DNA of 64,000 nucleotides. It comes from Escherichia coli. Its GTDB lineage: Bacteria > Pseudomonadota > Gammaproteobacteria > Enterobacterales > Enterobacteriaceae. The stretch lies in NCBI RefSeq assembly GCF_048403405.1, contig NZ_CP183129.1. One strand, written 5' to 3'. Shown here piece after piece: positions 2,044 through 64,000 of this stretch. Both the position numbers and the translations under genes were made by a program. Each line of letters starts with the position of its first letter. The stretch's first letter is position 1. The notes under the pieces are model-generated. The model had not been told where the DNA came from. It saw only the letters and a program-made list of their open reading frames with translations, and did no database searches.

Positions 2044-2761
2044 AATAAATATCCTCCGGCATAGCCGGAGGTTTTTCAAATGCGCCTATAAGGCTCTCTT
2101 ACCAGCCGCGCCCTAACAGGCGCACACGATCTGACATTTGCATCCAACTTCGTTACTTACGGCCCGTAAACGGGCTGCCCGGATAGGGAATCGATAACTG
2201 CTCTCCCATTTTATCCTCTTCAAGCTGGTGCTTTATGTAATCCTGTATCTTCGCCGTGTTCTTACCCACCGTATCGACGTAGTACCCTCTGCACCAGAAC
2301 TCCCTGTTCCTGTATTTGAATTTCAAATCACCAAACTGCTCGTAAAGCATCAGACTGCTTTTCCCTTTCAGATATCCCATAAAGCCGGATACGCTCATTT
2401 TGGGCGGGATCTCCACAAGCATATGGATATGATCTGCACAGCATTCAGCTTCCAGAATCCGTACACTTTTCCACTCACACAGCTTTCTCAAAATACTGCC
2501 TATTGCTCTACGCTTCTCTCTGTAGAACACCTGTCTTCGGTATTTTGGCGCAAAAACTATGTGATATTTACAGTTCCATCGGGTGTGCGCTAAGCTCTTT
2601 TCGTTCCCCATTGGGACCCCCTTTTGATTTCTTGTTTGACACTTGCAGTTGCCAGACCGCAAGGTGTTTTAACAAATCAAAAGGGGTTTTAATAACTGGC
2701 TTAAAGCTGAAAGCTTTCCGGAACCCCCAGCCTAGCTGGGGGTTTTCTGTGCACAAAAAAG
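2044..2761 (-). mobile_element. IS200-family insertion sequence, copy 1 (about 718 bp, no terminal inverted repeats)
   Basis: Segment is identical to 37105..37822; encodes a Y1 HuH transposase; imperfect palindromes near both ends (cctccggcatagccggagg and cccccagcctagctggggg). Confidence 0.9.
2153..2611 (-). CDS. tnpA: IS200/IS605-family Y1 (HuH) transposase TnpA
   Basis: Translation MGNEKSLAHTRWNCKYHIVFAPKYRRQVF...; HuH motif (HIHML) and C-terminal tyrosine; start taken at the internal Met of the 169 aa ORF-track entry to give about 152 aa. Confidence 0.9.
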   Translation of the reverse strand: MGNEKSLAHTRWNCKYHIVFAPKYRRQVFYREKRRAIGSILRKLCEWKSVRILEAECCADHIHMLVEIPPKMSVSGFMGYLKGKSSLMLYEQFGDLKFKYRNREFWCRGYYVDTVGKNTAKIQDYIKHQLEEDKMGEQLSIPYPGSPFTGRK

Positions 2762-4815: not shown

Positions 4816-5724
4816 TTAACGATCTTTCGGGTCGAGGGCATCACGCAAGCCATCGCCGATAAAGTTGAAACAAAACAGCGTCACCACGAGGAATCCCGCT
4901 GGGAACAACAGTAACCATGGAGAGACTTCCATCGAGTTCGCGCCATCACTCAGCAATGCACCCCAGCTGCTTAACGGCTCTTGCGTACCCAACCCCAGGA
5001 AGCTAAGGAAAGATTCAAAGAGGATCATGCTGGGCACCAGAAGTGATGCGTAGACCACCACCACACCGAGTACATTCGGCACAATGTGGCGAATAACAAT
5101 GCCCGACGTCGATACACCGCCAACTTGTGCCGCCTCAATAAACTCCTTGCGCTTCAGACTCAGGGTTTGCCCACGCACAATACGAGCCATATCCAGCCAG
5201 GAAACCATGCCTATCGCCACGAAAATCAGCAGGATGTTTTGACCGAAAAAGGTCACCAGCAAAATGACGAAGAACATGAATGGGAAGGAGTTGAGGATTT
5301 CCAGCAGACGCATCATTACCGAATCCACTTTACCGCCCAGATAACCGGAAAGCGAACCATAAAGTGTCCCGACGACCACAGCCACCAGTGCCGCAGCAAC
5401 ACCGACCATGAGTGAGATACGCCCGCCAATCGCAACGCGTACAAGCAGGTCGCGACCGGATGAGTCAGTACCAAAGTAGTGACCGGACTCCATATCCGGG
5501 GCGCTGGACATCATCGCCCAGTCAGTATCGTCATAGGCAAACTGCGAAAGCATCGGTGCCAGGATTACAAATAACGCGATCAGCACCAGCACTATCAGAC
5601 TGGCAACCGCCGCACGGTTATGCATAAAACGTCGACGTGCGTCCTGCCACAAGCTGCGCCCTTCGACCTCCAGCTTTTCACTGAAATTTTCCAGCGTCTC
5701 GCTGTTTTTCTTACTTAACATCAT
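4816..5724 (-). CDS. oppC: oligopeptide ABC transporter permease
   Basis: 302 aa multi-TM protein of the BPD permease type, synteny. Confidence 0.93.
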   Translation of the reverse strand: MMLSKKNSETLENFSEKLEVEGRSLWQDARRRFMHNRAAVASLIVLVLIALFVILAPMLSQFAYDDTDWAMMSSAPDMESGHYFGTDSSGRDLLVRVAIGGRISLMVGVAAALVAVVVGTLYGSLSGYLGGKVDSVMMRLLEILNSFPFMFFVILLVTFFGQNILLIFVAIGMVSWLDMARIVRGQTLSLKRKEFIEAAQVGGVSTSGIVIRHIVPNVLGVVVVYASLLVPSMILFESFLSFLGLGTQEPLSSWGALLSDGANSMEVSPWLLLFPAGFLVVTLFCFNFIGDGLRDALDPKDR

Positions 5725-5738
5725 CGCGAGCTCCAGTA

Positions 5739-6659
5739 TCAGTAACGGATTTTCGGGTCGATAACCGCATATAGCACATCGACAATGGCATTAAACAAAA
5801 TGGTTAACGCACCAACCAGAATGGTCAGACTTAACACTAAGGAATAGTCACGGTTCAATGCGCCATTAACGAACAATTGCCCAATCCCCGGTAAACCATA
5901 AATGGTTTCGATGACCATAGAACCGGTAATAATGCCGACAAATGCAGGGCCCATATAGGAGAGCACGGGTAACAGAGCTGGTTTTAATGCGTGGCGTAAA
6001 ATGATCCGCCGCATAGGTAACCCTTTCGCCCGGGCAGTACGAATAAAGTTGGAGTGTAAAACCTCAATCATAGAGCCACGGGTAATACGCGCAATACTGG
6101 CGATATAGGCGAGTGACAACGCCACCATCGGCAATATCATGAATTTAAGCGCCCCACCATTCCAGCCACCGCCCGGCAGCCAATGCAAAATGATCGCAAA
6201 TATCATGACTAATAATGGCGCAACCACAAAACTGGGGATAACAACCCCGGTCATTGCCAGCCCCATCACGGTATAGTCCCATTTGGTGTTTTGTTTTAAT
6301 GCGGCAATAACGCCAGCACTAACACCCAGTATTACCGCAAGGAAAAATGCTGCGGCTCCCAGTTTGGCAGAAACGGGAAAACTGGATGCAACCAGGTCGT
6401 TGACCGAATAATCTTTATATTTAAACGATGGACCGAAATCGCCATGCGCCAGTTGTTTCAGGTAGCTGAAATACTGTGTCATGATCGGATCATTTAGATG
6501 ATATTTCGCTTCGATATTGGCCATCACTTCTGGCGGTAAAGTACGTTCGCCGGTAAAAGGGCTTCCCGGCGCGAGGCGCATCATGAAGAACGAAATAGTA
6601 ATAAGAATAAATAGCGTCGGAATCGCTTCCAGACAGCGACGTAGAATAAATTTTAACAT
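5739..6659 (-). CDS. oppB: oligopeptide ABC transporter permease
   Basis: 306 aa multi-TM protein, synteny. Confidence 0.93.
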   Translation of the reverse strand: MLKFILRRCLEAIPTLFILITISFFMMRLAPGSPFTGERTLPPEVMANIEAKYHLNDPIMTQYFSYLKQLAHGDFGPSFKYKDYSVNDLVASSFPVSAKLGAAAFFLAVILGVSAGVIAALKQNTKWDYTVMGLAMTGVVIPSFVVAPLLVMIFAIILHWLPGGGWNGGALKFMILPMVALSLAYIASIARITRGSMIEVLHSNFIRTARAKGLPMRRIILRHALKPALLPVLSYMGPAFVGIITGSMVIETIYGLPGIGQLFVNGALNRDYSLVLSLTILVGALTILFNAIVDVLYAVIDPKIRY

Positions 6660-6744
6660 TGCCCTACCTTCTGGCCTGTGCCTTCTGTAATGCGATAAAA
6701 ATCAGACACCGTGGAGCAGGACACGCCTGCCCCACGTATTGCCA

Positions 6745-8376
6745 TTAGTGCTTCACAATGTACATATTCCGGGTGTAGGTATTATCCAGCGGATCTTTGC
6801 CGGTATAGCCACCAACCCACGGTTTCACCAGACGCGCATTCACGTAGTAATAAACAGGAACAATGGCCGAATCCTTATCCAGCTGTTGTTCTGCTTTAGT
6901 GTACAGAGCTGTGCGCTGCGCCTCGTCAGTCGCTTTCAGCGTTTCCGCCATAATGCTGTCAAAGGCCGGGCTCTTATAATGCGCGGTATTCATCGAGCTG
7001 TTCGACAGCATGGTGTTCAGGAAGGAAGTTGGTTCGTTGTAGTCTGCACACCAGCCTGCACGGGCCACATCAAAAGTGCCCTGGTGACGGGTGTCGAGGA
7101 ATGTTTTCCACTCCTGGTTAACCAGTTTGACGTTTACACCAATGTTTTTCTTCCACAATGAAGAGGCAGCAATCGCCAGCTTTTTATGCAGATCGGAGGT
7201 GTTATACAACAGGTTGATGGTTAACGGTTTGTCTGCGGTATAACCCGCTTCAGCCAGCAGTTTTTTCGCTTCTTCGTTACGTTTTTCCTGGCTCCAGCCA
7301 AACCATTCCGGCTGAGTCAATTTTGCGCCATCAGTATACGGTGGAGTGTAACTATAGGCGGGCATGTCGCCCTGCGCTTTCACTTTATTAACAATGATAT
7401 CGCGGTCCATACCCAGTTTCAGTGCGGTACGCACACGTACATCGTTAAATGGCGGTTTCTGGTTGTTAATTTCGTAATAATAAGTGCACAGGTATGGATC
7501 AACGTGAACTTCGTCCGGGATCTCTTTTTTCAGCTTCTGGAACAATTCGATCGGCATGTTGTTATAAGTCATGTCGATTTCACCACTACGGTAGCGATTG
7601 ACATCGGTAACTTCAGAAGCAATAGGCAAATAGGTTACCTGGTTAATAACGGTTTTCGCGTTGTTCCAGTAGGTCGGGCTGCGTTCAAGAACGATTCGTT
7701 CGTTTACGACCCAATCTTTTAAGGTATAGGCACCGTTGGTGACGATATTACCAGGCTGGGTCCATTTTTCGCCGAATTTCTCGATAGCGGCTTTTGGCAC
7801 CGGTGAAGTTGACGGGTGAACAAGTAATTTATAGAAGTACGGAACGGGTTCACTTAAGGTGACTTCTAATGTGTGATCATCAATAGCTTTCACGCCGAGA
7901 TCGGTAATCGGTTTTTTCCCTTCAAGAATTTCATCAATACCGGCGATATGCCCATATTGCAGATAACTGGCATACGGAGAAGCGGTGTTCGGATCAACAG
8001 AACGTTGCCAGCTATACACAAAGTCTTGGGCTGTGACTGGCGTGCCATCAGACCATTTCGCATCTTTACGCAAATGGAAGGTCCAGACTTTCGCGTCTTT
8101 ATTATCCCAGGATTCAGCGACGCCAGGTGCCGGATGGCCGTCAAGATCGCTGACCAGTAAGCCTTCAAACAGGTCTCGGCTGATATTAGACTCCGGAACA
8201 CCTTCAATTTTGTGCGGATCTAATGACTGAACTTCTGAACCATTGTTACGTACCAGCGTTTGTTTTTCCGCCAGTGTGACGCCTGCGGGTACATCAGCTG
8301 CCAGCGCGACATTCCCTGCCATAAGCGCAGCCAGAACGCCAGCTGCTACTAAACTTCTCTTGGTGATGTTGGTCAT
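6745..8376 (-). CDS. oppA: periplasmic oligopeptide-binding protein
   Basis: Start taken at MTNITKRSLVAAGVLAALMAGNVALA (signal peptide) inside the 567 aa ORF-track entry, giving 543 aa; family 5 solute-binding protein. Confidence 0.93.
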   Translation of the reverse strand: MTNITKRSLVAAGVLAALMAGNVALAADVPAGVTLAEKQTLVRNNGSEVQSLDPHKIEGVPESNISRDLFEGLLVSDLDGHPAPGVAESWDNKDAKVWTFHLRKDAKWSDGTPVTAQDFVYSWQRSVDPNTASPYASYLQYGHIAGIDEILEGKKPITDLGVKAIDDHTLEVTLSEPVPYFYKLLVHPSTSPVPKAAIEKFGEKWTQPGNIVTNGAYTLKDWVVNERIVLERSPTYWNNAKTVINQVTYLPIASEVTDVNRYRSGEIDMTYNNMPIELFQKLKKEIPDEVHVDPYLCTYYYEINNQKPPFNDVRVRTALKLGMDRDIIVNKVKAQGDMPAYSYTPPYTDGAKLTQPEWFGWSQEKRNEEAKKLLAEAGYTADKPLTINLLYNTSDLHKKLAIAASSLWKKNIGVNVKLVNQEWKTFLDTRHQGTFDVARAGWCADYNEPTSFLNTMLSNSSMNTAHYKSPAFDSIMAETLKATDEAQRTALYTKAEQQLDKDSAIVPVYYYVNARLVKPWVGGYTGKDPLDNTYTRNMYIVKH

Positions 8377-10237: not shown

Positions 10238-12913
10238 ATGGCTGTTACTAATGTCGCTGAACTTAACGCACTCGTAGAGCGTGTAAAAAAAGCCCAGCGT
10301 GAATATGCCAGTTTCACTCAAGAGCAAGTAGACAAAATCTTCCGCGCCGCCGCTCTGGCTGCTGCAGATGCTCGAATCCCACTCGCGAAAATGGCCGTTG
10401 CCGAATCCGGCATGGGTATCGTCGAAGATAAAGTGATCAAAAACCACTTTGCTTCTGAATATATCTACAACGCCTATAAAGATGAAAAAACCTGTGGTGT
10501 TCTGTCTGAAGACGACACTTTTGGTACCATCACTATCGCTGAACCAATCGGTATTATTTGCGGTATCGTTCCGACCACTAACCCGACTTCAACTGCTATC
10601 TTCAAATCGCTGATCAGCCTGAAGACCCGTAACGCCATTATCTTCTCCCCGCACCCGCGTGCAAAAGATGCAACCAACAAAGCAGCTGATATCGTTCTGC
10701 AGGCTGCTATCGCTGCCGGTGCTCCGAAAGATCTGATCGGCTGGATCGATCAACCTTCTGTTGAACTGTCTAACGCACTGATGCACCACCCAGACATCAA
10801 CCTGATCCTCGCGACTGGTGGTCCGGGCATGGTTAAAGCCGCATACAGCTCCGGTAAACCAGCTATCGGCGTAGGCGCGGGCAACACTCCAGTTGTTATC
10901 GATGAAACTGCTGATATCAAACGTGCAGTTGCATCTGTACTGATGTCCAAAACCTTCGACAACGGCGTAATCTGTGCTTCTGAACAGTCTGTTGTTGTTG
11001 TTGACTCTGTTTATGACGCAGTACGTGAACGTTTCGCAACCCACGGCGGCTATCTGTTGCAGGGTAAAGAGCTGAAAGCTGTTCAGGACGTTATCCTGAA
11101 AAACGGTGAGCTGAACGCGGCTATCGTTGGTCAGCCAGCCTATAAAATTGCTGAACTGGCAGGCTTCTCTGTACCAGAAAACACCAAGATTCTGATCGGT
11201 GAAGTGACCGTTGTTGATGAAAGCGAACCGTTCGCACATGAAAAACTGTCCCCGACTCTGGCAATGTACCGCGCTAAAGATTTCGAAGACGCGGTAGAAA
11301 AAGCAGAGAAACTGGTTGCTATGGGCGGTATCGGTCATACCTCTTGCCTGTACACTGACCAGGATAACCAACCGGCTCGCGTTTCTTACTTCGGTCAGAA
11401 AATGAAAACGGCTCGTATCCTGATTAACACCCCGGCTTCTCAGGGTGGTATCGGTGACCTGTATAACTTCAAACTCGCACCTTCCCTGACTCTGGGTTGT
11501 GGTTCCTGGGGTGGTAACTCCATCTCTGAAAACGTTGGTCCGAAACACCTGATCAACAAGAAAACCGTTGCTAAGCGAGCTGAAAACATGTTGTGGCACA
11601 AACTTCCGAAATCTATCTACTTCCGCCGTGGCTCCCTGCCAATCGCGCTGGATGAAGTGATTACTGATGGCCACAAACGTGCGCTCATCGTGACTGACCG
11701 CTTCCTGTTCAACAATGGTTATGCTGATCAGATCACTTCCGTACTGAAAGCAGCAGGCGTTGAAACTGAAGTCTTCTTCGAAGTAGAAGCTGACCCGACC
11801 CTGAGCATCGTTCGTAAAGGTGCAGAACTGGCAAACTCCTTCAAACCAGACGTGATTATCGCGCTGGGTGGTGGTTCCCCGATGGACGCCGCGAAGATCA
11901 TGTGGGTCATGTACGAACATCCGGAAACTCACTTCGAAGAACTGGCGCTGCGCTTTATGGATATCCGTAAACGTATCTACAAGTTCCCGAAAATGGGCGT
12001 GAAAGCGAAAATGATCGCTGTCACCACCACTTCTGGTACAGGTTCTGAAGTCACTCCGTTTGCGGTTGTAACTGACGACGCTACTGGTCAGAAATATCCG
12101 CTGGCAGACTATGCGCTGACCCCGGATATGGCGATTGTCGATGCCAACCTGGTTATGGACATGCCGAAGTCCCTGTGTGCTTTCGGTGGTCTGGACGCAG
12201 TAACTCACGCCATGGAAGCTTATGTTTCTGTACTGGCATCTGAGTTCTCTGATGGTCAGGCTCTGCAGGCGCTGAAACTGCTGAAAGAATATCTGCCAGC
12301 GTCCTACCACGAAGGATCTAAAAATCCGGTAGCGCGTGAACGTGTTCACAGTGCAGCAACTATCGCGGGTATCGCGTTTGCGAACGCCTTCCTGGGTGTA
12401 TGTCACTCAATGGCGCACAAACTGGGTTCCCAGTTCCATATTCCGCACGGTCTGGCAAACGCCCTGCTGATTTGTAACGTTATTCGCTACAACGCGAACG
12501 ACAACCCGACCAAGCAGACTGCATTCAGCCAGTATGACCGTCCGCAAGCTCGCCGTCGTTATGCTGAAATTGCTGACCACCTGGGTCTGAGCGCACCGGG
12601 CGACCGTACTGCTGCTAAGATCGAGAAACTGCTGGCATGGCTGGAAACGCTGAAAGCTGAACTGGGTATTCCGAAATCTATCCGTGAAGCTGGCGTTCAG
12701 GAAGCAGACTTCCTGGCGAATGTGGATAAACTGTCTGAAGATGCATTCGATGACCAGTGCACCGGCGCTAACCCGCGTTACCCACTGATCTCCGAGCTGA
12801 AACAGATTCTGCTGGATACCTACTACGGTCGTGATTATGTAGAAGGTGAAACTGCAGCGAAAAAAGAAGCCGCTCCGGCTAAAGCTGAGAAAAAAGCGAA
12901 GAAATCCGCTTAA
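10238..12913 (+). CDS. adhE: bifunctional acetaldehyde-CoA/alcohol dehydrogenase
   Basis: 891 aa; N-terminal aldehyde dehydrogenase domain and C-terminal iron-type alcohol dehydrogenase domain; C-terminal lysine-rich tail. Confidence 0.97.
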
Positions 12914-19737: not shown

Positions 19738-19822
<85 letters not shown>

Positions 19823-19856
19823 TCTCAAGCATTACCTCAAAATTTGAATTACCCTT

Positions 19857-19941
<85 letters not shown>

Positions 19942-20160
19942 TCACTTTCAAAAGTCCCTGAACTCTCAAACGAATCCGTAATTAAATATTCTGCCCAAGC
20001 GGGGAAGGATGAGAAGCTTCGACCAAGGTTCGACTCGAGCGCCAGCGAGAGAGCGTTGCCGCAGGCAACGACCCGAAGGGCGAAGCGCGCAGCGCTGAGT
20101 AATCCTTCCCCCACCACCATCACTTCCTGTAAATACTCAAAACCTGTTACTCCGAGCTAA
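19942..20160 (+). ncRNA. rtT: rtT-like tRNA-operon distal repeat region (contains tpr)
   Basis: Contains a second copy of the tRNA 3'-end-like motif aatccttcccccaccaccatcac (about 20100..20122) and repeated attctgcccaa; extent approximate. Confidence 0.45.
20009..20098 (+). CDS. tpr: protamine-like small basic protein
   Basis: 29-codon [32 protein letters not shown] inside the rtT repeat; arginine-rich. Confidence 0.5.
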
Positions 20161-34859: not shown

Positions 34860-35960
34860 ATGTCAAATGCTCAAGAGGCGGTAAAAACCCGCCACAAGGA
34901 GACTTCGCTTATTTTCCCGGTTCTGGCGCTGGTAGTGCTGTTCCTGTGGGGAAGCAGCCAGACACTACCAGTGGTCATTGGCATCAATCTTCTTGCTCTT
35001 ATTGGTATTTTAAGTAGCGCCTTTAGTGTTGTCCGTCATGCGGACGTATTAGCCCATCGCCTGGGAGAACCTTACGGTTCGCTTATTCTTAGCCTTTCAG
35101 TGGTTATTCTTGAAGTCAGTTTGATTTCAGCTTTAATGGCAACCGGCGACGCCGCGCCAACGCTAATGCGTGATACGCTCTATTCAATCATTATGATTGT
35201 TACCGGTGGGCTGGTTGGCTTTTCATTATTGTTGGGCGGACGCAAGTTTGCCACCCAATATATGAATCTGTTTGGTATCAAGCAGTATTTAATTGCGTTG
35301 TTCCCCCTGGCGATAATCGTACTGGTATTTCCAATGGCTCTGCCTGCGGCGAATTTTTCAACCGGTCAGGCGTTACTGGTAGCATTAATTTCTGCGGCAA
35401 TGTATGGCGTATTTTTGCTGATCCAGACCAAAACGCATCAAAGTTTATTTGTCTACGAGCACGAAGATGACAGTGATGATGACGACCCGCACCACGGTAA
35501 ACCGTCTGCCCATAGCAGCCTTTGGCATGCTATCTGGTTGATTGTCCATCTGATTGCCGTTATTGCAGTCACCAAAATGAACGCCAGCCCGCTGGAGACA
35601 TTGCTCGACAGCATGAATGCCCCTGTCGCCTTTACTGGCTTCCTGGTGGCTCTGTTGATTCTGTCGCCGGAAGGTTTAGGTGCGTTAAAAGCAGTGTTGA
35701 ACAACCAGGTCCAGCGCGCGATGAATCTGTTCTTTGGTTCAGTGTTAGCAACCATTTCGCTTACCGTACCTGTCGTCACGCTAATTGCCTTTATGACGGG
35801 TAACGAATTGCAGTTTGCACTTGGTGCGCCAGAAATGGTAGTGATGGTGGCCTCTTTAGTGCTGTGCCATATCTCCTTCTCCACCGGACGTACTAACGTG
35901 CTCAATGGCGCAGCGCATCTGGCACTGTTTGCCGCCTATTTGATGACGATATTTGCCTGA
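34860..35960 (+). CDS. chaA: Ca2+/H+ (Na+/H+) antiporter
   Basis: Start at MSNAQEAVKTRHKE (366 aa) inside the 395 aa ORF-track entry; CaCA-family multi-TM protein. Confidence 0.93.
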   Translation: MSNAQEAVKTRHKETSLIFPVLALVVLFLWGSSQTLPVVIGINLLALIGILSSAFSVVRHADVLAHRLGEPYGSLILSLSVVILEVSLISALMATGDAAPTLMRDTLYSIIMIVTGGLVGFSLLLGGRKFATQYMNLFGIKQYLIALFPLAIIVLVFPMALPAANFSTGQALLVALISAAMYGVFLLIQTKTHQSLFVYEHEDDSDDDDPHHGKPSAHSSLWHAIWLIVHLIAVIAVTKMNASPLETLLDSMNAPVAFTGFLVALLILSPEGLGALKAVLNNQVQRAMNLFFGSVLATISLTVPVVTLIAFMTGNELQFALGAPEMVVMVASLVLCHISFSTGRTNVLNGAAHLALFAAYLMTIFA

Positions 35961-36249
35961 CAGTTATATCTCCTCCGATGACAGAAATCGGGGGAGATAA
36001 TATAAATTCCTGCTTATTGTATTTCTTCATACTACCTGAACAGGTTGTTAATCAGAATTGCGAGCCTGTACCAGAACCTGCACGAAACCACTGCAACAGC
36101 TGTTGAAAAGCCGGAATGTACTCTTTATTGCAAACATTTCAGGGATGAAGTGAAGATGAATTGAGACGTAGTATCCACACCAAGCCGGCGTTATCCGGTG
36201 AGGCGCAATGTTGCGGGGGCTTTATCCCTGGTGGCATTGGTTGCTGGAA

Positions 36250-36317
36250 AGAGAAAACCCCCGCACGTTGAGAGGTAAAACCTGACAACAGAACGGGGGC
36301 TAATCTTGAACCATCAA
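36250..36317 (-). ncRNA. rdl: predicted Rdl antisense RNA, copy A (coordinates approximate)
   Basis: Minus-strand promoter ttgtaa-N17-tattct (-10 at 36325..36330), stem cccccg/cggggg plus T-rich tract about 67 nt downstream; antisense to the ldr leader. Confidence 0.4.
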
Positions 36318-36365
36318 CAATTCAAGAATAGCCGCAAAATGTTGTCATTACAACAAGGCGGCTAT

Positions 36366-36473
36366 ATGACGCTCGCGCAGTTTGCCATGATTTTCTGGCA
36401 CGACCTGGCAGCACCGATCCTGGCGGGAATTATTACCGCAGCGATTGTCAGCTGGTGGCGTAACCGGAAGTAA
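36366..36473 (+). CDS. ldr: Ldr type I toxin (35 aa membrane peptide)
   Basis: MTLAQFAMIFWHDLAAPILAGIITAAIVSWWRNRK; followed by hairpin ggccgcaggtgtaacagcctgcggcc plus TTTTTT (36523..36554). Confidence 0.9.
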   Translation: MTLAQFAMIFWHDLAAPILAGIITAAIVSWWRNRK

Positions 36474-36784
36474 GGTGAAAACGGGCGTCAGGCTGCCGTG
36501 ATGGCAATATGCGCCCGAAACCGGCCGCAGGTGTAACAGCCTGCGGCCTTTTTTGTCTTTATCTCTTCCACAAGTAAATATTGGCAACCCGAGCTGGAAG
36601 CATCATCCAGAGCACTCATGAAACGACTGTAACAGCTGTTGAAAAACCGGAATGCACTCTTCATTGCATACATTTCAGGGATGAAGTGAAGATGAATTGA
36701 GTCGTAGTATCCACACCAAGCCGGCGTTATCCGGTGAGGCGCAATGTTGCGGGGGCTCTATCCCTGGTGGCATTGGTTGCTGGA

Positions 36785-36852
36785 AAGAGAAAACCCCCGC
36801 ACGTTGAGAGGTATAACCTGACAACAGAACGGGGGCTAATCTTGAACCAGAA
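36785..36852 (-). ncRNA. rdl: predicted Rdl antisense RNA, copy B (coordinates approximate)
   Basis: Same promoter and terminator-like elements as copy A, shifted by 535 bp. Confidence 0.4.
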
Positions 36853-36900
36853 CAATTCAAGAATAGCCGCAAAATGTTGTCATTACAACAAGGCGGCTAT

Positions 36901-37008
36901 ATGACGCTCACGCAGTTTGCCATGACTTTCTGGCACGACCTGGCAGCACCGATCCTGGCGGGAATTATTACCGCAGCGATTGTCAGCTGGTGGCGTAACC
37001 GGAAGTAA
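36901..37008 (+). CDS. ldr: Ldr type I toxin (35 aa), second copy
   Basis: MTLTQFAMTFWHDLAAPILAGIITAAIVSWWRNRK (two substitutions relative to copy A); terminator hairpin 37058..37089. Confidence 0.9.
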   Translation: MTLTQFAMTFWHDLAAPILAGIITAAIVSWWRNRK

Positions 37009-37104
37009 GGTGAAAACGGGCGTCAGGCTGCCGTGATGGCAATATGCGCCCGAAACCGGCCGCAGGAGTAACAGCCTGCGGCCTTTTTTGTATCCGGCCC
37101 CATG

Positions 37105-37822
37105 AATAAATATCCTCCGGCATAGCCGGAGGTTTTTCAAATGCGCCTATAAGGCTCTCTTACCAGCCGCGCCCTAACAGGCGCACACGATCTGACATTT
37201 GCATCCAACTTCGTTACTTACGGCCCGTAAACGGGCTGCCCGGATAGGGAATCGATAACTGCTCTCCCATTTTATCCTCTTCAAGCTGGTGCTTTATGTA
37301 ATCCTGTATCTTCGCCGTGTTCTTACCCACCGTATCGACGTAGTACCCTCTGCACCAGAACTCCCTGTTCCTGTATTTGAATTTCAAATCACCAAACTGC
37401 TCGTAAAGCATCAGACTGCTTTTCCCTTTCAGATATCCCATAAAGCCGGATACGCTCATTTTGGGCGGGATCTCCACAAGCATATGGATATGATCTGCAC
37501 AGCATTCAGCTTCCAGAATCCGTACACTTTTCCACTCACACAGCTTTCTCAAAATACTGCCTATTGCTCTACGCTTCTCTCTGTAGAACACCTGTCTTCG
37601 GTATTTTGGCGCAAAAACTATGTGATATTTACAGTTCCATCGGGTGTGCGCTAAGCTCTTTTCGTTCCCCATTGGGACCCCCTTTTGATTTCTTGTTTGA
37701 CACTTGCAGTTGCCAGACCGCAAGGTGTTTTAACAAATCAAAAGGGGTTTTAATAACTGGCTTAAAGCTGAAAGCTTTCCGGAACCCCCAGCCTAGCTGG
37801 GGGTTTTCTGTGCACAAAAAAG
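37105..37822 (-). mobile_element. IS200-family insertion sequence, copy 2
   Basis: Identical to 2044..2761 over the full length; flanks differ (ldr terminator on one side, kdsA terminator on the other). Confidence 0.9.
37214..37672 (-). CDS. tnpA: IS200/IS605-family Y1 (HuH) transposase TnpA
   Basis: Same protein as 2153..2611. Confidence 0.9.
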   Translation of the reverse strand: MGNEKSLAHTRWNCKYHIVFAPKYRRQVFYREKRRAIGSILRKLCEWKSVRILEAECCADHIHMLVEIPPKMSVSGFMGYLKGKSSLMLYEQFGDLKFKYRNREFWCRGYYVDTVGKNTAKIQDYIKHQLEEDKMGEQLSIPYPGSPFTGRK

Positions 37823-37847
37823 CCTTAACGCAGAACGCTAAGGCTTT
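37822..37847 (-). terminator. kdsA intrinsic terminator
   Basis: Minus strand hairpin gccttagcgttctgcgttaaggc then T-run; the T-run lies at the IS200 boundary. Confidence 0.55.
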
Positions 37848-37866
37848 AGTTTTCAAGCAAAAAAGT

Positions 37867-38730
<864 letters not shown>

Positions 38731-61638: not shown

Positions 61639-62661
61639 ATGTCACTAACCAGACGGAGGTTTACACAGATTCTTGCGTCGACATTGTTCCTGCATCATCT
61701 GCCGTCCTTTGCACTATCAGTCAAATTCTGGGCCTCACTGACGCTTCCCGAAGCCCAAAACATTACACGCATCGTCAGCGCAGGCGCGCCCGCCGATTTA
61801 CTATTGCTGGCTGTCGCGCCAGAAAAAATGGTCGGTTTTTCCTCTTTTGATTTTGCCCGTCAGGCATTAATTCCATTGCCAAAGCACATTCGCCAGTTCC
61901 CCAGGCTGGGACGACTCGCCGGGCGCGCCAGCACACTCTCGCTGGAAGGGCTTATGGCGTTACATCCCGATTTGGTCGTTGATTGCGGCAATACGGATGA
62001 AACCTGGATCTCCCAGGCACGGCAGGTTAGCGAACAGACACAAATACCCTGGTTATTGCTTAACGGGAAACTGGAACAATCAGCAGAACAGTTAACAACG
62101 CTTGGCAAAACGTTAGGCGAAGAGCACCGCACCGCAGAACAAGCCAATCTCGCCAGCCGCTTCGTTGGTGAAGCTCAGGCATTCGCCACCTCACCCGCCG
62201 CTAACCTCAGCTTTTATGCTGCGCGCGGTCCTCGAGGGCTGGAAACGGGCTTACAGGGTTCGTTGCATACCGAGGCGGCGGAATTATTAGGTTTGCACAA
62301 CGTCGCGCAAATAGCCGATCGCCACGGTCTGACACAGGTTTCCATGGAAAATCTCCTGCGCTGGCAGCCGGATATTATTCTGGTTCAGGAGGCCGTTACT
62401 GCAGATTTTATTCGTCGTGATCCTCTCTGGCAGGGCGTGAAAGCGGTTGCGGAACAACGCATCTTATTTTTAAGTGGCCTGCCCTTTGGCTGGCTGGATG
62501 CCCCGCCGGGAATCAACCGTCTTCTGGGATTACGCAGACTTCACGCCTGGCTGGATCCCGCCATCAATCGCCAGTTTAAAAGTGACATGCAGCATTACGC
62601 CCAACTGTTCTGGCATTGCCTATTAAGTGACGCCGACTATCAAAAATTGGTGGCGAGCTAA
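61639..62661 (+). CDS. ABC transporter periplasmic substrate-binding protein (iron-siderophore/hemin/B12 class)
   Basis: Start at MSLTRRRFTQILASTL (arginine-rich, Tat-like signal) inside the 354 aa ORF-track entry; composition and operon context of class III binding proteins. Confidence 0.75.
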   Translation: MSLTRRRFTQILASTLFLHHLPSFALSVKFWASLTLPEAQNITRIVSAGAPADLLLLAVAPEKMVGFSSFDFARQALIPLPKHIRQFPRLGRLAGRASTLSLEGLMALHPDLVVDCGNTDETWISQARQVSEQTQIPWLLLNGKLEQSAEQLTTLGKTLGEEHRTAEQANLASRFVGEAQAFATSPAANLSFYAARGPRGLETGLQGSLHTEAAELLGLHNVAQIADRHGLTQVSMENLLRWQPDIILVQEAVTADFIRRDPLWQGVKAVAEQRILFLSGLPFGWLDAPPGINRLLGLRRLHAWLDPAINRQFKSDMQHYAQLFWHCLLSDADYQKLVAS

Positions 62662-63641
62662 TGAGAACCGTAAACGGATGTATTTTGCTGCTGGCAGCTA
62701 TCAGTATCACTTTTGCCGCCGTAAGTGGGGCTTATCATCTCGATATACAGCAACTGCTGGCGCTCATTCTTCGTCAAGAAAATGTTCCTGTGCAGGAACA
62801 AATTGTCTTCTGGCAAATCCGCGTGCCGCGTATTCTTGCTGCGCTGTTTCTGGGCGCGGCGCTGGCAGGGGCCGGAACCACCTATCAGGGAATGTTCCGT
62901 AATCCCTTAGTGTCACCGGATATTTTAGGCGTCTCCGCCGGTGCCGGACTTGGTGCCTGCGCGGCAATCCTGTGGGGATTATCCATTGTTTACATCCAGC
63001 TGTACGCATTTTGCGGCGGGCTGATGGTGGTCGCGGGCGTCTGGTTGATTACGCGTCGGGTGACCCGCCACGATCCGATCTTAACCCTGGTGCTGGTAGG
63101 CATTGCGTTAGGAACGTTGTGCGGAGCGGGGATATCGCTAATAAAAACGCTGGCCGATCCTTACACCCAGTTACCGTCAATTACCTTCTGGTTGCTGGGG
63201 GGGCTGTCCACCGTGACCTTACGCGATCTCTGCTATGCTGCACCGATCATTCTCATAGGCTCCTTGCCCCTGTTTTTTCTCCGCTGGCGTATGAATTTAC
63301 TCACGCTTTCCGACGACGAAGCCCGTTCGCTGGGACTGAACGTGACACGTCTGCGCTTTGGATTAATTGTCTGCGCCACACTAATCACCGCCAGCACGGT
63401 AGCAATAGCGGGCATAATTGGTTGGGTCGGCCTGGTCGTTCCGCACATTGCCCGCTTGTTGACCGGTCATAACCATCAGCAGCTGTTGCCCATGGCAATG
63501 TGTACTGGCGCGATTCTGCTCCTGCTTACCGATACGCTGGCACGCAGCATTGGAACAACAGAAATCCCACTTGGCATTCTGACCGCTTTTGTTGGTGCAC
63601 CGTTTTTCCTGTTTTTGTTGTTACGCGGAGGTCGCCAGTGA
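62661..63641 (+). CDS. ABC transporter permease, FecCD/BtuC family
   Basis: 326 aa multi-TM protein, start overlaps the binding-protein stop. Confidence 0.8.
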   Translation: MRTVNGCILLLAAISITFAAVSGAYHLDIQQLLALILRQENVPVQEQIVFWQIRVPRILAALFLGAALAGAGTTYQGMFRNPLVSPDILGVSAGAGLGACAAILWGLSIVYIQLYAFCGGLMVVAGVWLITRRVTRHDPILTLVLVGIALGTLCGAGISLIKTLADPYTQLPSITFWLLGGLSTVTLRDLCYAAPIILIGSLPLFFLRWRMNLLTLSDDEARSLGLNVTRLRFGLIVCATLITASTVAIAGIIGWVGLVVPHIARLLTGHNHQQLLPMAMCTGAILLLLTDTLARSIGTTEIPLGILTAFVGAPFFLFLLLRGGRQ

Positions 63642-64000
63642 CTTTGCTTGCCGTCCGTCATGCGTCTCTGGGTTACTCCCGCCATCCGGTGCTACGCGAC
63701 GTGTCCTTCACCCTGTCGCAAGGAACAATTTGTTGTCTGTTAGGAGCCAATGGTTGCGGCAAAACCACACTCATGCGCTCCATTCTTGGCGTTATACCGT
63801 TATTAAAAGGCGAGATCTTACTGGATAGCCTCCCTGTGCAGACACTCAGCCATCGCCAGCGCGCGCAGGCTATTGCCTGGGTGCCGCAGGCGCACGACGG
63901 CATTTTTGCTTTTAGTGTGCTGGATATGGTGTTGATGGGCCTGGCCCCCACCATAGGCGCTTTTTCCGTTCCCGGTAAGCAAGAACGCCTGAAAGCAACG
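63638..64000 (+). CDS. ABC transporter ATP-binding protein (5' part; runs off the window end)
   Basis: GTG start overlapping the permease stop; Walker A GANGCGKTT; open to the end of the window. Confidence 0.8.
   Translation, partial: MTLLAVRHASLGYSRHPVLRDVSFTLSQGTICCLLGANGCGKTTLMRSILGVIPLLKGEILLDSLPVQTLSHRQRAQAIAWVPQAHDGIFAFSVLDMVLMGLAPTIGAFSVPGKQERLKAT

Follow-up and report, generated by a model that had tools for sequence, protein, structure and literature searches.

Two identical copies of the insertion sequence IS200C lie in the 64-kb stretch of Escherichia coli DNA analysed here (the window), and the observations as a whole are very probably best explained by an ordinary element that is old at the kdsA terminator and young at the oppF terminator, with the neighboring array of LDR (ldr/rdl) units being independent of it. 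The gene order around the older copy is chaA (34860-35960, +), two LDR units, the IS and kdsA (37867-38721, -), and the IS is an entire copy of IS200C (IS200/IS605 family), with a single Y1 HUH transposase gene, tnpA (Table 1). An earlier, sequence-only reading of the window had called the interval an IS200 element. This is confirmed by the tnpA product, which scores 147.7 bits against model NF033573 (cut-off 55, E = 1.9e-43), and by RefSeq, where PGAP names the transposase of both window copies in strain MS 69-1 'IS200/IS605-like element IS200C family transposase' (WP_000526135.1). IS200C is annotated at ldr-kdsA in hundreds of RefSeq genomes; this is an ordinary, already known insertion polymorphism.

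The window and MS 69-1 (NZ_CP146675.1, 2926803-2990802) differ by a single mismatch over the full 64 kb. The mismatch falls at position 11109, inside adhE, with A in the window and C in the RefSeq record. Elsewhere, the window contains tRNA-Tyr genes in tandem with RtT RNA after them (19738-20119; RF00391, 137 bits), an arrangement also seen at tyrTV of K-12, and, downstream of treA, an iron ABC transporter cluster consisting of a substrate-binding protein, a FecCD-family permease and an ATPase (62441-64000).

Pairwise alignment within the window showed that 2044-2761 and 37105-37822, which lie in direct orientation, are identical over all 718 positions, as the sequence-only reading had stated, and that the identity breaks off sharply at either end. 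The limits of the element itself were set by empty alleles from other strains. At oppF-yciU, strain TUM14771 reads ...GGCGT/AAAAAAG/GGCTGAC..., and at ldr-kdsA, strain N3 reads ...CCCCATG/AAAAAAG/CCTTAAC.... Occupied and empty alleles are exactly 711 bp apart at both sites, with no duplicated bases beyond a placement ambiguity of 1-2 nt. Thus, the element measures 711 bp, and the comparison of occupied with empty alleles reveals no target-site duplication at either site; at ldr-kdsA, comparison with the empty allele also reveals no loss of flanking DNA. The final 7 bp of the 718-bp interval (AAAAAAG, 37816-37822) are host DNA that is coincidentally alike at the two sites. On the tnpA strand, these bases make up the T-run and the final base of the stem in the kdsA terminator and, at the other site, in the oppF terminator. 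On the opposite side, a terminator scan placed the end of the second ldr terminator approximately 14-15 bp before the right end of the IS, in agreement with the distance of about 14 bp given earlier.

Table 1. Coordinates of the IS200C copies, their parts and the flanking features in the 64-kb window.
Feature	Position	Strand	Description
IS200C copy 1	2044..2754	-	tnpA 2153-2611; directly 3' of oppF terminator
LDR unit 1	36022..36556	+	ldr 36366-36473 (+), rdl 36252-36317 (-); nearest K-12 ldrC
LDR unit 2	36557..37091	+	ldr 36901-37008 (+), rdl 36788-36853 (-); nearest K-12 ldrA
Terminator of second ldr unit	37058..37091	+	Stem 37058-37083, then T-run; intact
IS200C copy 2	37105..37815	-	Right end 37105, left end 37815; between second ldr terminator and kdsA terminator
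Right-end subterminal hairpin	37114..37132	-	CCTCCGGC-TAT-GCCGGAGG; ssDNA fold -10 kcal/mol, z = -3.56; 9 nt from IS end
tnpA	37214..37672	-	152-aa Y1 HUH transposase; NF033573 transpos_IS200; WP_000526135.1
tnpA 5'UTR long stem-loop	37679..37747	-	Buries AAGGGGG ribosome-binding region; RNA fold -40 kcal/mol, z = -4.81
Left-end subterminal hairpin	37785..37803	-	CCCCCAGC-TAG-GCTGGGGG; ssDNA fold -11.7 kcal/mol, z = -2.66
kdsA intrinsic terminator	37816..37847	-	Hairpin + TTTTTT at 37816-37821; insertion target, intact

Perfect identity over 718 bp could also be produced by an assembly artefact, by a segmental duplication, or by gene conversion of older, diverged copies, given that IS copies within a genome can be homogenised. 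Such an origin is extremely unlikely. The identity stops at the IS ends plus the 7 bp of alike target sequence, clean empty alleles exist elsewhere for both sites, and both copies are found in four independent complete assemblies. Conversion is further opposed by the empty oppF-yciU site in the nearest relatives, which points to a gain.

The layout of the element agrees with the published description of IS200. The translation of tnpA contains the residues H61-I-H63 and Y125. Subterminal hairpins fold as ssDNA at both ends of the element, whereas a comparison of the two ends identified no terminal inverted repeats. The right-end hairpin was picked up on both strands by the terminator scan, and the left-end hairpin corresponds to the internal terminator reported at nt 12-34 of IS200 (PMC4513863). 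Both copies match the Rfam family STnc490 (RF01405) over the full model length (1-124) with 146.1 bits, against a gathering score of 56. These matches (37682-37805 and 2621-2744) are on the - strand, which is the tnpA-sense strand, and cover the left-end terminator hairpin and the 5'UTR stem-loop; the STnc490/art200 RNA has been described as antisense to tnpA (PMC4513863). The GC skew of the window + strand is -0.033 and tnpA is on the - strand in both copies. Thus, tnpA is co-directional with replication and the top strand of each copy is on the lagging-strand template, as the family rule prescribes (PMC5027513).

The sequence-only reading took the identity of the two copies as a sign that the copy next to kdsA had transposed recently. 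This part did not hold up. Of 5,426 complete E. coli genomes queried with the occupied junction, 259 carry the ldr-kdsA insertion, and these include alleles whose flanks have diverged. The orthologous IS in strain U1 differs from that of the window by 1 substitution and the one in ETEC4079 by 4 substitutions, and over their 8-kb flanks these strains share 99.6% and 98.9% identity, respectively, with the window. Because the substitutions in the IS are roughly parallel to the divergence of the flanks, the ldr-kdsA insertion appears to have aged along with its surroundings. The U1 substitution, read on the + strand of the window, affects the third nucleotide counted from the right end (T>A; AAAAAATATCC in place of AATAAATATCC) and alters terminal bases at the expected place of right-end cleavage. 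The insertion is also present in strain 266917_2, which belongs to ST38 (PMC6963479). In this strain, the orthologous tnpA is annotated as frameshifted, which would reflect decay of this copy or else an error in sequencing.

The oppF-yciU site has a very different distribution. It is occupied in 7 genomes (4621, MS 69-1, TUM1226, OX030728 and three ST2747 assemblies) and empty in 5,410. The empty genomes include the nearest relatives TUM14771 and GN02461, both of which are 100% identical to the window over the ldr-kdsA region. As judged from these alignments, the ldr-kdsA copy is an old insertion and the oppF-yciU copy is a recent one. Identity itself is weak evidence of recency here, because 711-bp IS200C copies of identical sequence occur in many strains and sit at unrelated loci in unrelated strains. 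The best IS200C copy has at least 99% identity in 1,301 records.

The MS 69-1 genome has approximately 19 IS200C copies, and genomes of the lineage bearing the ldr-kdsA insertion have approximately 12-25 IS200C places each, both figures being BLAST place counts and not a full inventory. Among all IS200C-positive E. coli genomes, the median is 1 place and the maximum is 35; an average of 2.9 IS200 copies in E. coli is quoted in the literature (PMC4513863). These counts suggest a lineage-specific expansion of an element that is usually termed dormant. A lineage including ST38 and MS 69-1 carries the old ldr-kdsA insertion, and the oppF copy is very probably a much younger daughter of one among the identical IS200C copies. 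Any of them could have served as the donor, because the genome has about 19 copies and identical IS200C sequences are widespread.

We also examined the LDR array next to the older copy. The window has two units, against three (ldrA, ldrB and ldrC) in E. coli K-12 MG1655. This difference, which the sequence-only reading had pointed out, is supported by direct sequence comparison. The units repeat with a period of 535 bp, and each contains an ORF for a 35-aa Ldr protein with an antisense Rdl RNA upstream of it (rdlD, RF01813; 83.6 and 87 bits, against 50 in Rfam). The Ldr protein of unit 1 is identical to K-12 LdrA/LdrC. At the nucleotide level, unit 1 has 18 differences from K-12 ldrC, which is next to chaA, and unit 2 has 9 differences from ldrA, which is next to kdsA, versus 20 from ldrB. 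The length of the chaA-kdsA interval varies with the number of units: 657 bp with one unit in APEC E18006, 1192 bp with two units in N3, JNE21-009 and FAHZZU6014, 1726 bp with three units in K-12, and 1903 bp in the window, with two units plus the IS. Two units are also present in O157:H7 F6321 and three in O111:H8 8B.

Across complete genomes, the number of units was counted via an 80-nt spacer that is found solely between units. The spacer occurs in 4,085 genomes at 6,556 chromosomal places, and 1,341 genomes are without it. On the assumption that arrays of more than three units are rare, arithmetic on these totals gives approximately 1,340 genomes with one or no unit, 1,600 with two and 2,470 with three, so that the two-unit array accounts for about 30% of complete genomes. 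In a 60-row sample of the spacer query, one spacer was present in 22 genomes and two in 38. Two other queries were of limited use for this purpose. The ~52% coverage class of an 8-kb query was ruled out as a class of arrays with at least three units, since F6321 belongs to it and has two. The LDR half of a 140-bp query for the empty ldr-kdsA junction also matches the upstream unit, so the 5,148 genomes that it matched at 80% coverage or more are not a count of empty sites; the empty state was judged instead from real sequences together with the occupied-junction query.

The difference from K-12 had led the sequence-only reading to propose that the insertion may be linked to the loss of a unit. 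A recent insertion at ldr-kdsA that accompanied or caused the loss of one unit from a K-12-like three-unit array would account for the two units seen here against three in K-12, and also for the two units in 258 of the 259 IS-bearing alleles. We consider it highly improbable, and the proposed link is refuted by relatives that have no IS at this site and yet share the two-unit array and its junction, the very outcome that the sequence-only reading had named as contrary to it. In N3 and JNE21-009, which are IS-free, the units are only 1-3 nt off those of the window, their Ldr proteins are the same, and the junction CCCCATG/AAAAAAG is uninterrupted. ST2747 is 99.0-99.5% identical to the window over 35 kb and has the same two Ldr proteins and the uninterrupted junction, with no IS at ldr-kdsA in that 35-kb comparison. 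Moreover, the two-unit state is found in about 1,600 genomes, the IS lies outside the repeat, past its terminator, and the insertion is common to 259 genomes with diverged flanks. The milder option offered in the same reading, mere strain variation in repeat number, is the one that stands: only 258 of the roughly 1,600 two-unit genomes have the IS. Thus, an array of two units is a common allele that existed beforehand, and the IS landed next to it independently. The array itself would stem from unequal exchange among the 535-bp repeats.

The kdsA terminator also varies among strains. In the window (37816-37850), it has a perfect stem, AAAGCCTTAGCG...CGTTAAGGCTTT, versus the weaker K-12 allele, GTCTTAACGC...GCTAATACTTT. 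The stronger-stem allele is present in the IS-bearing lineage and in the IS-free N3, JNE21-009 and ST2747, where the junction at the terminator reads ...GGCTTTTTT/CATGGGG. The strength of the stem might influence the quality of this terminator as a target.

Both window copies are located directly behind terminators, and this placement extends to other loci. We added eight IS200C loci taken from other genomes to the two in the window; the resulting 10 loci represent nine independent sites, located downstream of oppF, kdsA, pqqU, a prophage lom gene, fdnI, soxR, pheP, wzzB and a hypothetical gene of ST131. At all nine sites, the left end of the element is directly 3' of a G+C-rich hairpin and a T-rich run, and the gene is co-oriented with tnpA. 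The 5' flank ends in TT at all 10 loci, and in TTTT or longer at most of them. In the ST38 strain 28Eco12, nine of ten IS200C copies were reported in T-rich regions and the tenth in a prophage (PMC6963479). A preprint describes terminator-like sequences as enriched immediately upstream of insertion sequences, most strongly for IS200/IS605.

The oppF terminator appears to have been used as a target more than once. In ST2747 (L019, NZ_CP007394.1), it is occupied by another IS200 variant (WP_000502112.1) whose insertion nucleotide and orientation are identical. This variant differs from the window copy at 27 of 711 nt, spread along its length, and at 4 aa, whereas a single position differs in approximately 4.3 kb of flank. 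The comparison indicates a probable independent strike on the same site. ST2747 is also without approximately 1.6 kb (window 5398-7002) spanning oppB and oppC, and its annotation has an enlarged 'oppA' directly followed by oppD.

A single origin is probable for the 259 occupied ldr-kdsA alleles, but oppF shows that one nucleotide can be struck twice. As a variant of the main explanation, the 259 alleles could represent several independent strikes on a hot-spot terminator, perhaps spread by recombination. This would be in line with the two IS200 variants at oppF, with the finding that all examined sites are terminators, and with the ETEC4079 copy, whose 4 differences could mark another subfamily. 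We regard it as unlikely, though with a real chance of being correct, because the number of IS substitutions (0, 1 and 4) climbs as flank identity falls (100%, 99.6% and 98.9%), as in vertical descent, and because the position and the two-unit array are the same in every occupied allele examined.

How the element comes to lie behind terminators can be considered in light of its family. TnpA binds the subterminal hairpins of the top strand, and cleavage is guided by a tetranucleotide immediately 5' of the foot of each hairpin. Insertion of the left end takes place 3' of a specific short target, with a preference for the lagging-strand template (PMC6006769, PMC5027513). By this 'peel-and-paste' route, as known for the family, the top strand would leave as a single-stranded circle, and the circle would integrate 3' of a short T-rich target in the lagging-strand template while this is single-stranded. 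In IS200C, GAAAA stands in front of both hairpins, T-rich sequence flanks the left end and the right-hand terminus reads ...TATT, which by analogy with IS608 makes pairing between an A-rich guide and a T-rich site plausible. The GAAAA just 5' of each subterminal hairpin would be the likely guide for the T-rich cleavage sites. If an A-rich guide favors T-rich sites, terminator hairpins with their T-runs would be preferred for landing.

It is quite possible, if not quite probable, that IS200C actively homes to intrinsic terminators (a hairpin plus T-run on the lagging-strand template) via the A-rich guide adjacent to its hairpins. Under active homing, the transposase would recognise the host hairpin and T-run as a structure similar to the right end of IS200C itself. 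Adjacency to terminators could also partly mean the survival of harmless, transcriptionally insulated insertions and not targeting. If active homing is true, terminators would be recurrent hot spots that receive strikes at the same nucleotide, as at oppF, and the ST38/MS 69-1 lineage would exemplify, in nature, an element that is still active despite its reputation for near-dormancy.

For the locus itself, these results have little consequence: the element, its family and its regulation are already known, and arrays of two LDR units are common. Their use is as markers and as a caution. The ldr-kdsA insertion can serve to recognise an ST38-related lineage, and the one at oppF-yciU a very small subclade comprising four genomes. 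As a clock, the identity of IS copies taken by itself is poor, and here it failed to tell which copy is recent. Placement behind terminators, together with one site that was apparently struck twice, offers a testable handle on IS200 target choice. The preference for terminators has so far been reported just as a statistical enrichment, in the preprint cited above.

The features described here can be compared with several known systems. The LDR units resemble K-12 LDR-A, LDR-B and LDR-C in their 535-bp length, 35-aa Ldr ORF, Rdl antisense RNA and location between chaA and kdsA, and differ in that the window has two units and is without an ldrB-like middle unit. With other Y1 HUH elements, the IS shares the H61-x-H63 and Y125 residues, the insertion of the left end 3' of a short specific target and the top strand as lagging-strand template. 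It differs from relatives with TTAC or TTGAT targets in having no tnpB and in using a T-rich target that ends in TT after a hairpin. Salmonella IS200 has the same left-end terminator hairpin at about nt 12-34 and the same 5'UTR stem-loop sequestering the ribosome-binding site, consistent with the 146-bit RF01405 match. The Salmonella element is 707 bp long, versus 711 bp for the E. coli subtype found here, and art200 is described as antisense, whereas the Rfam match in the window is on the tnpA-sense strand. With IS200C of E. coli, no material difference is apparent: RefSeq, on whose label the name rests, assigns WP_000526135.1 to IS200C at the same ldr-kdsA locus, and the window element has the same 711-bp length, lone tnpA, subterminal hairpins, lack of inverted repeats and of target duplication, and insertion into T-rich sequence.
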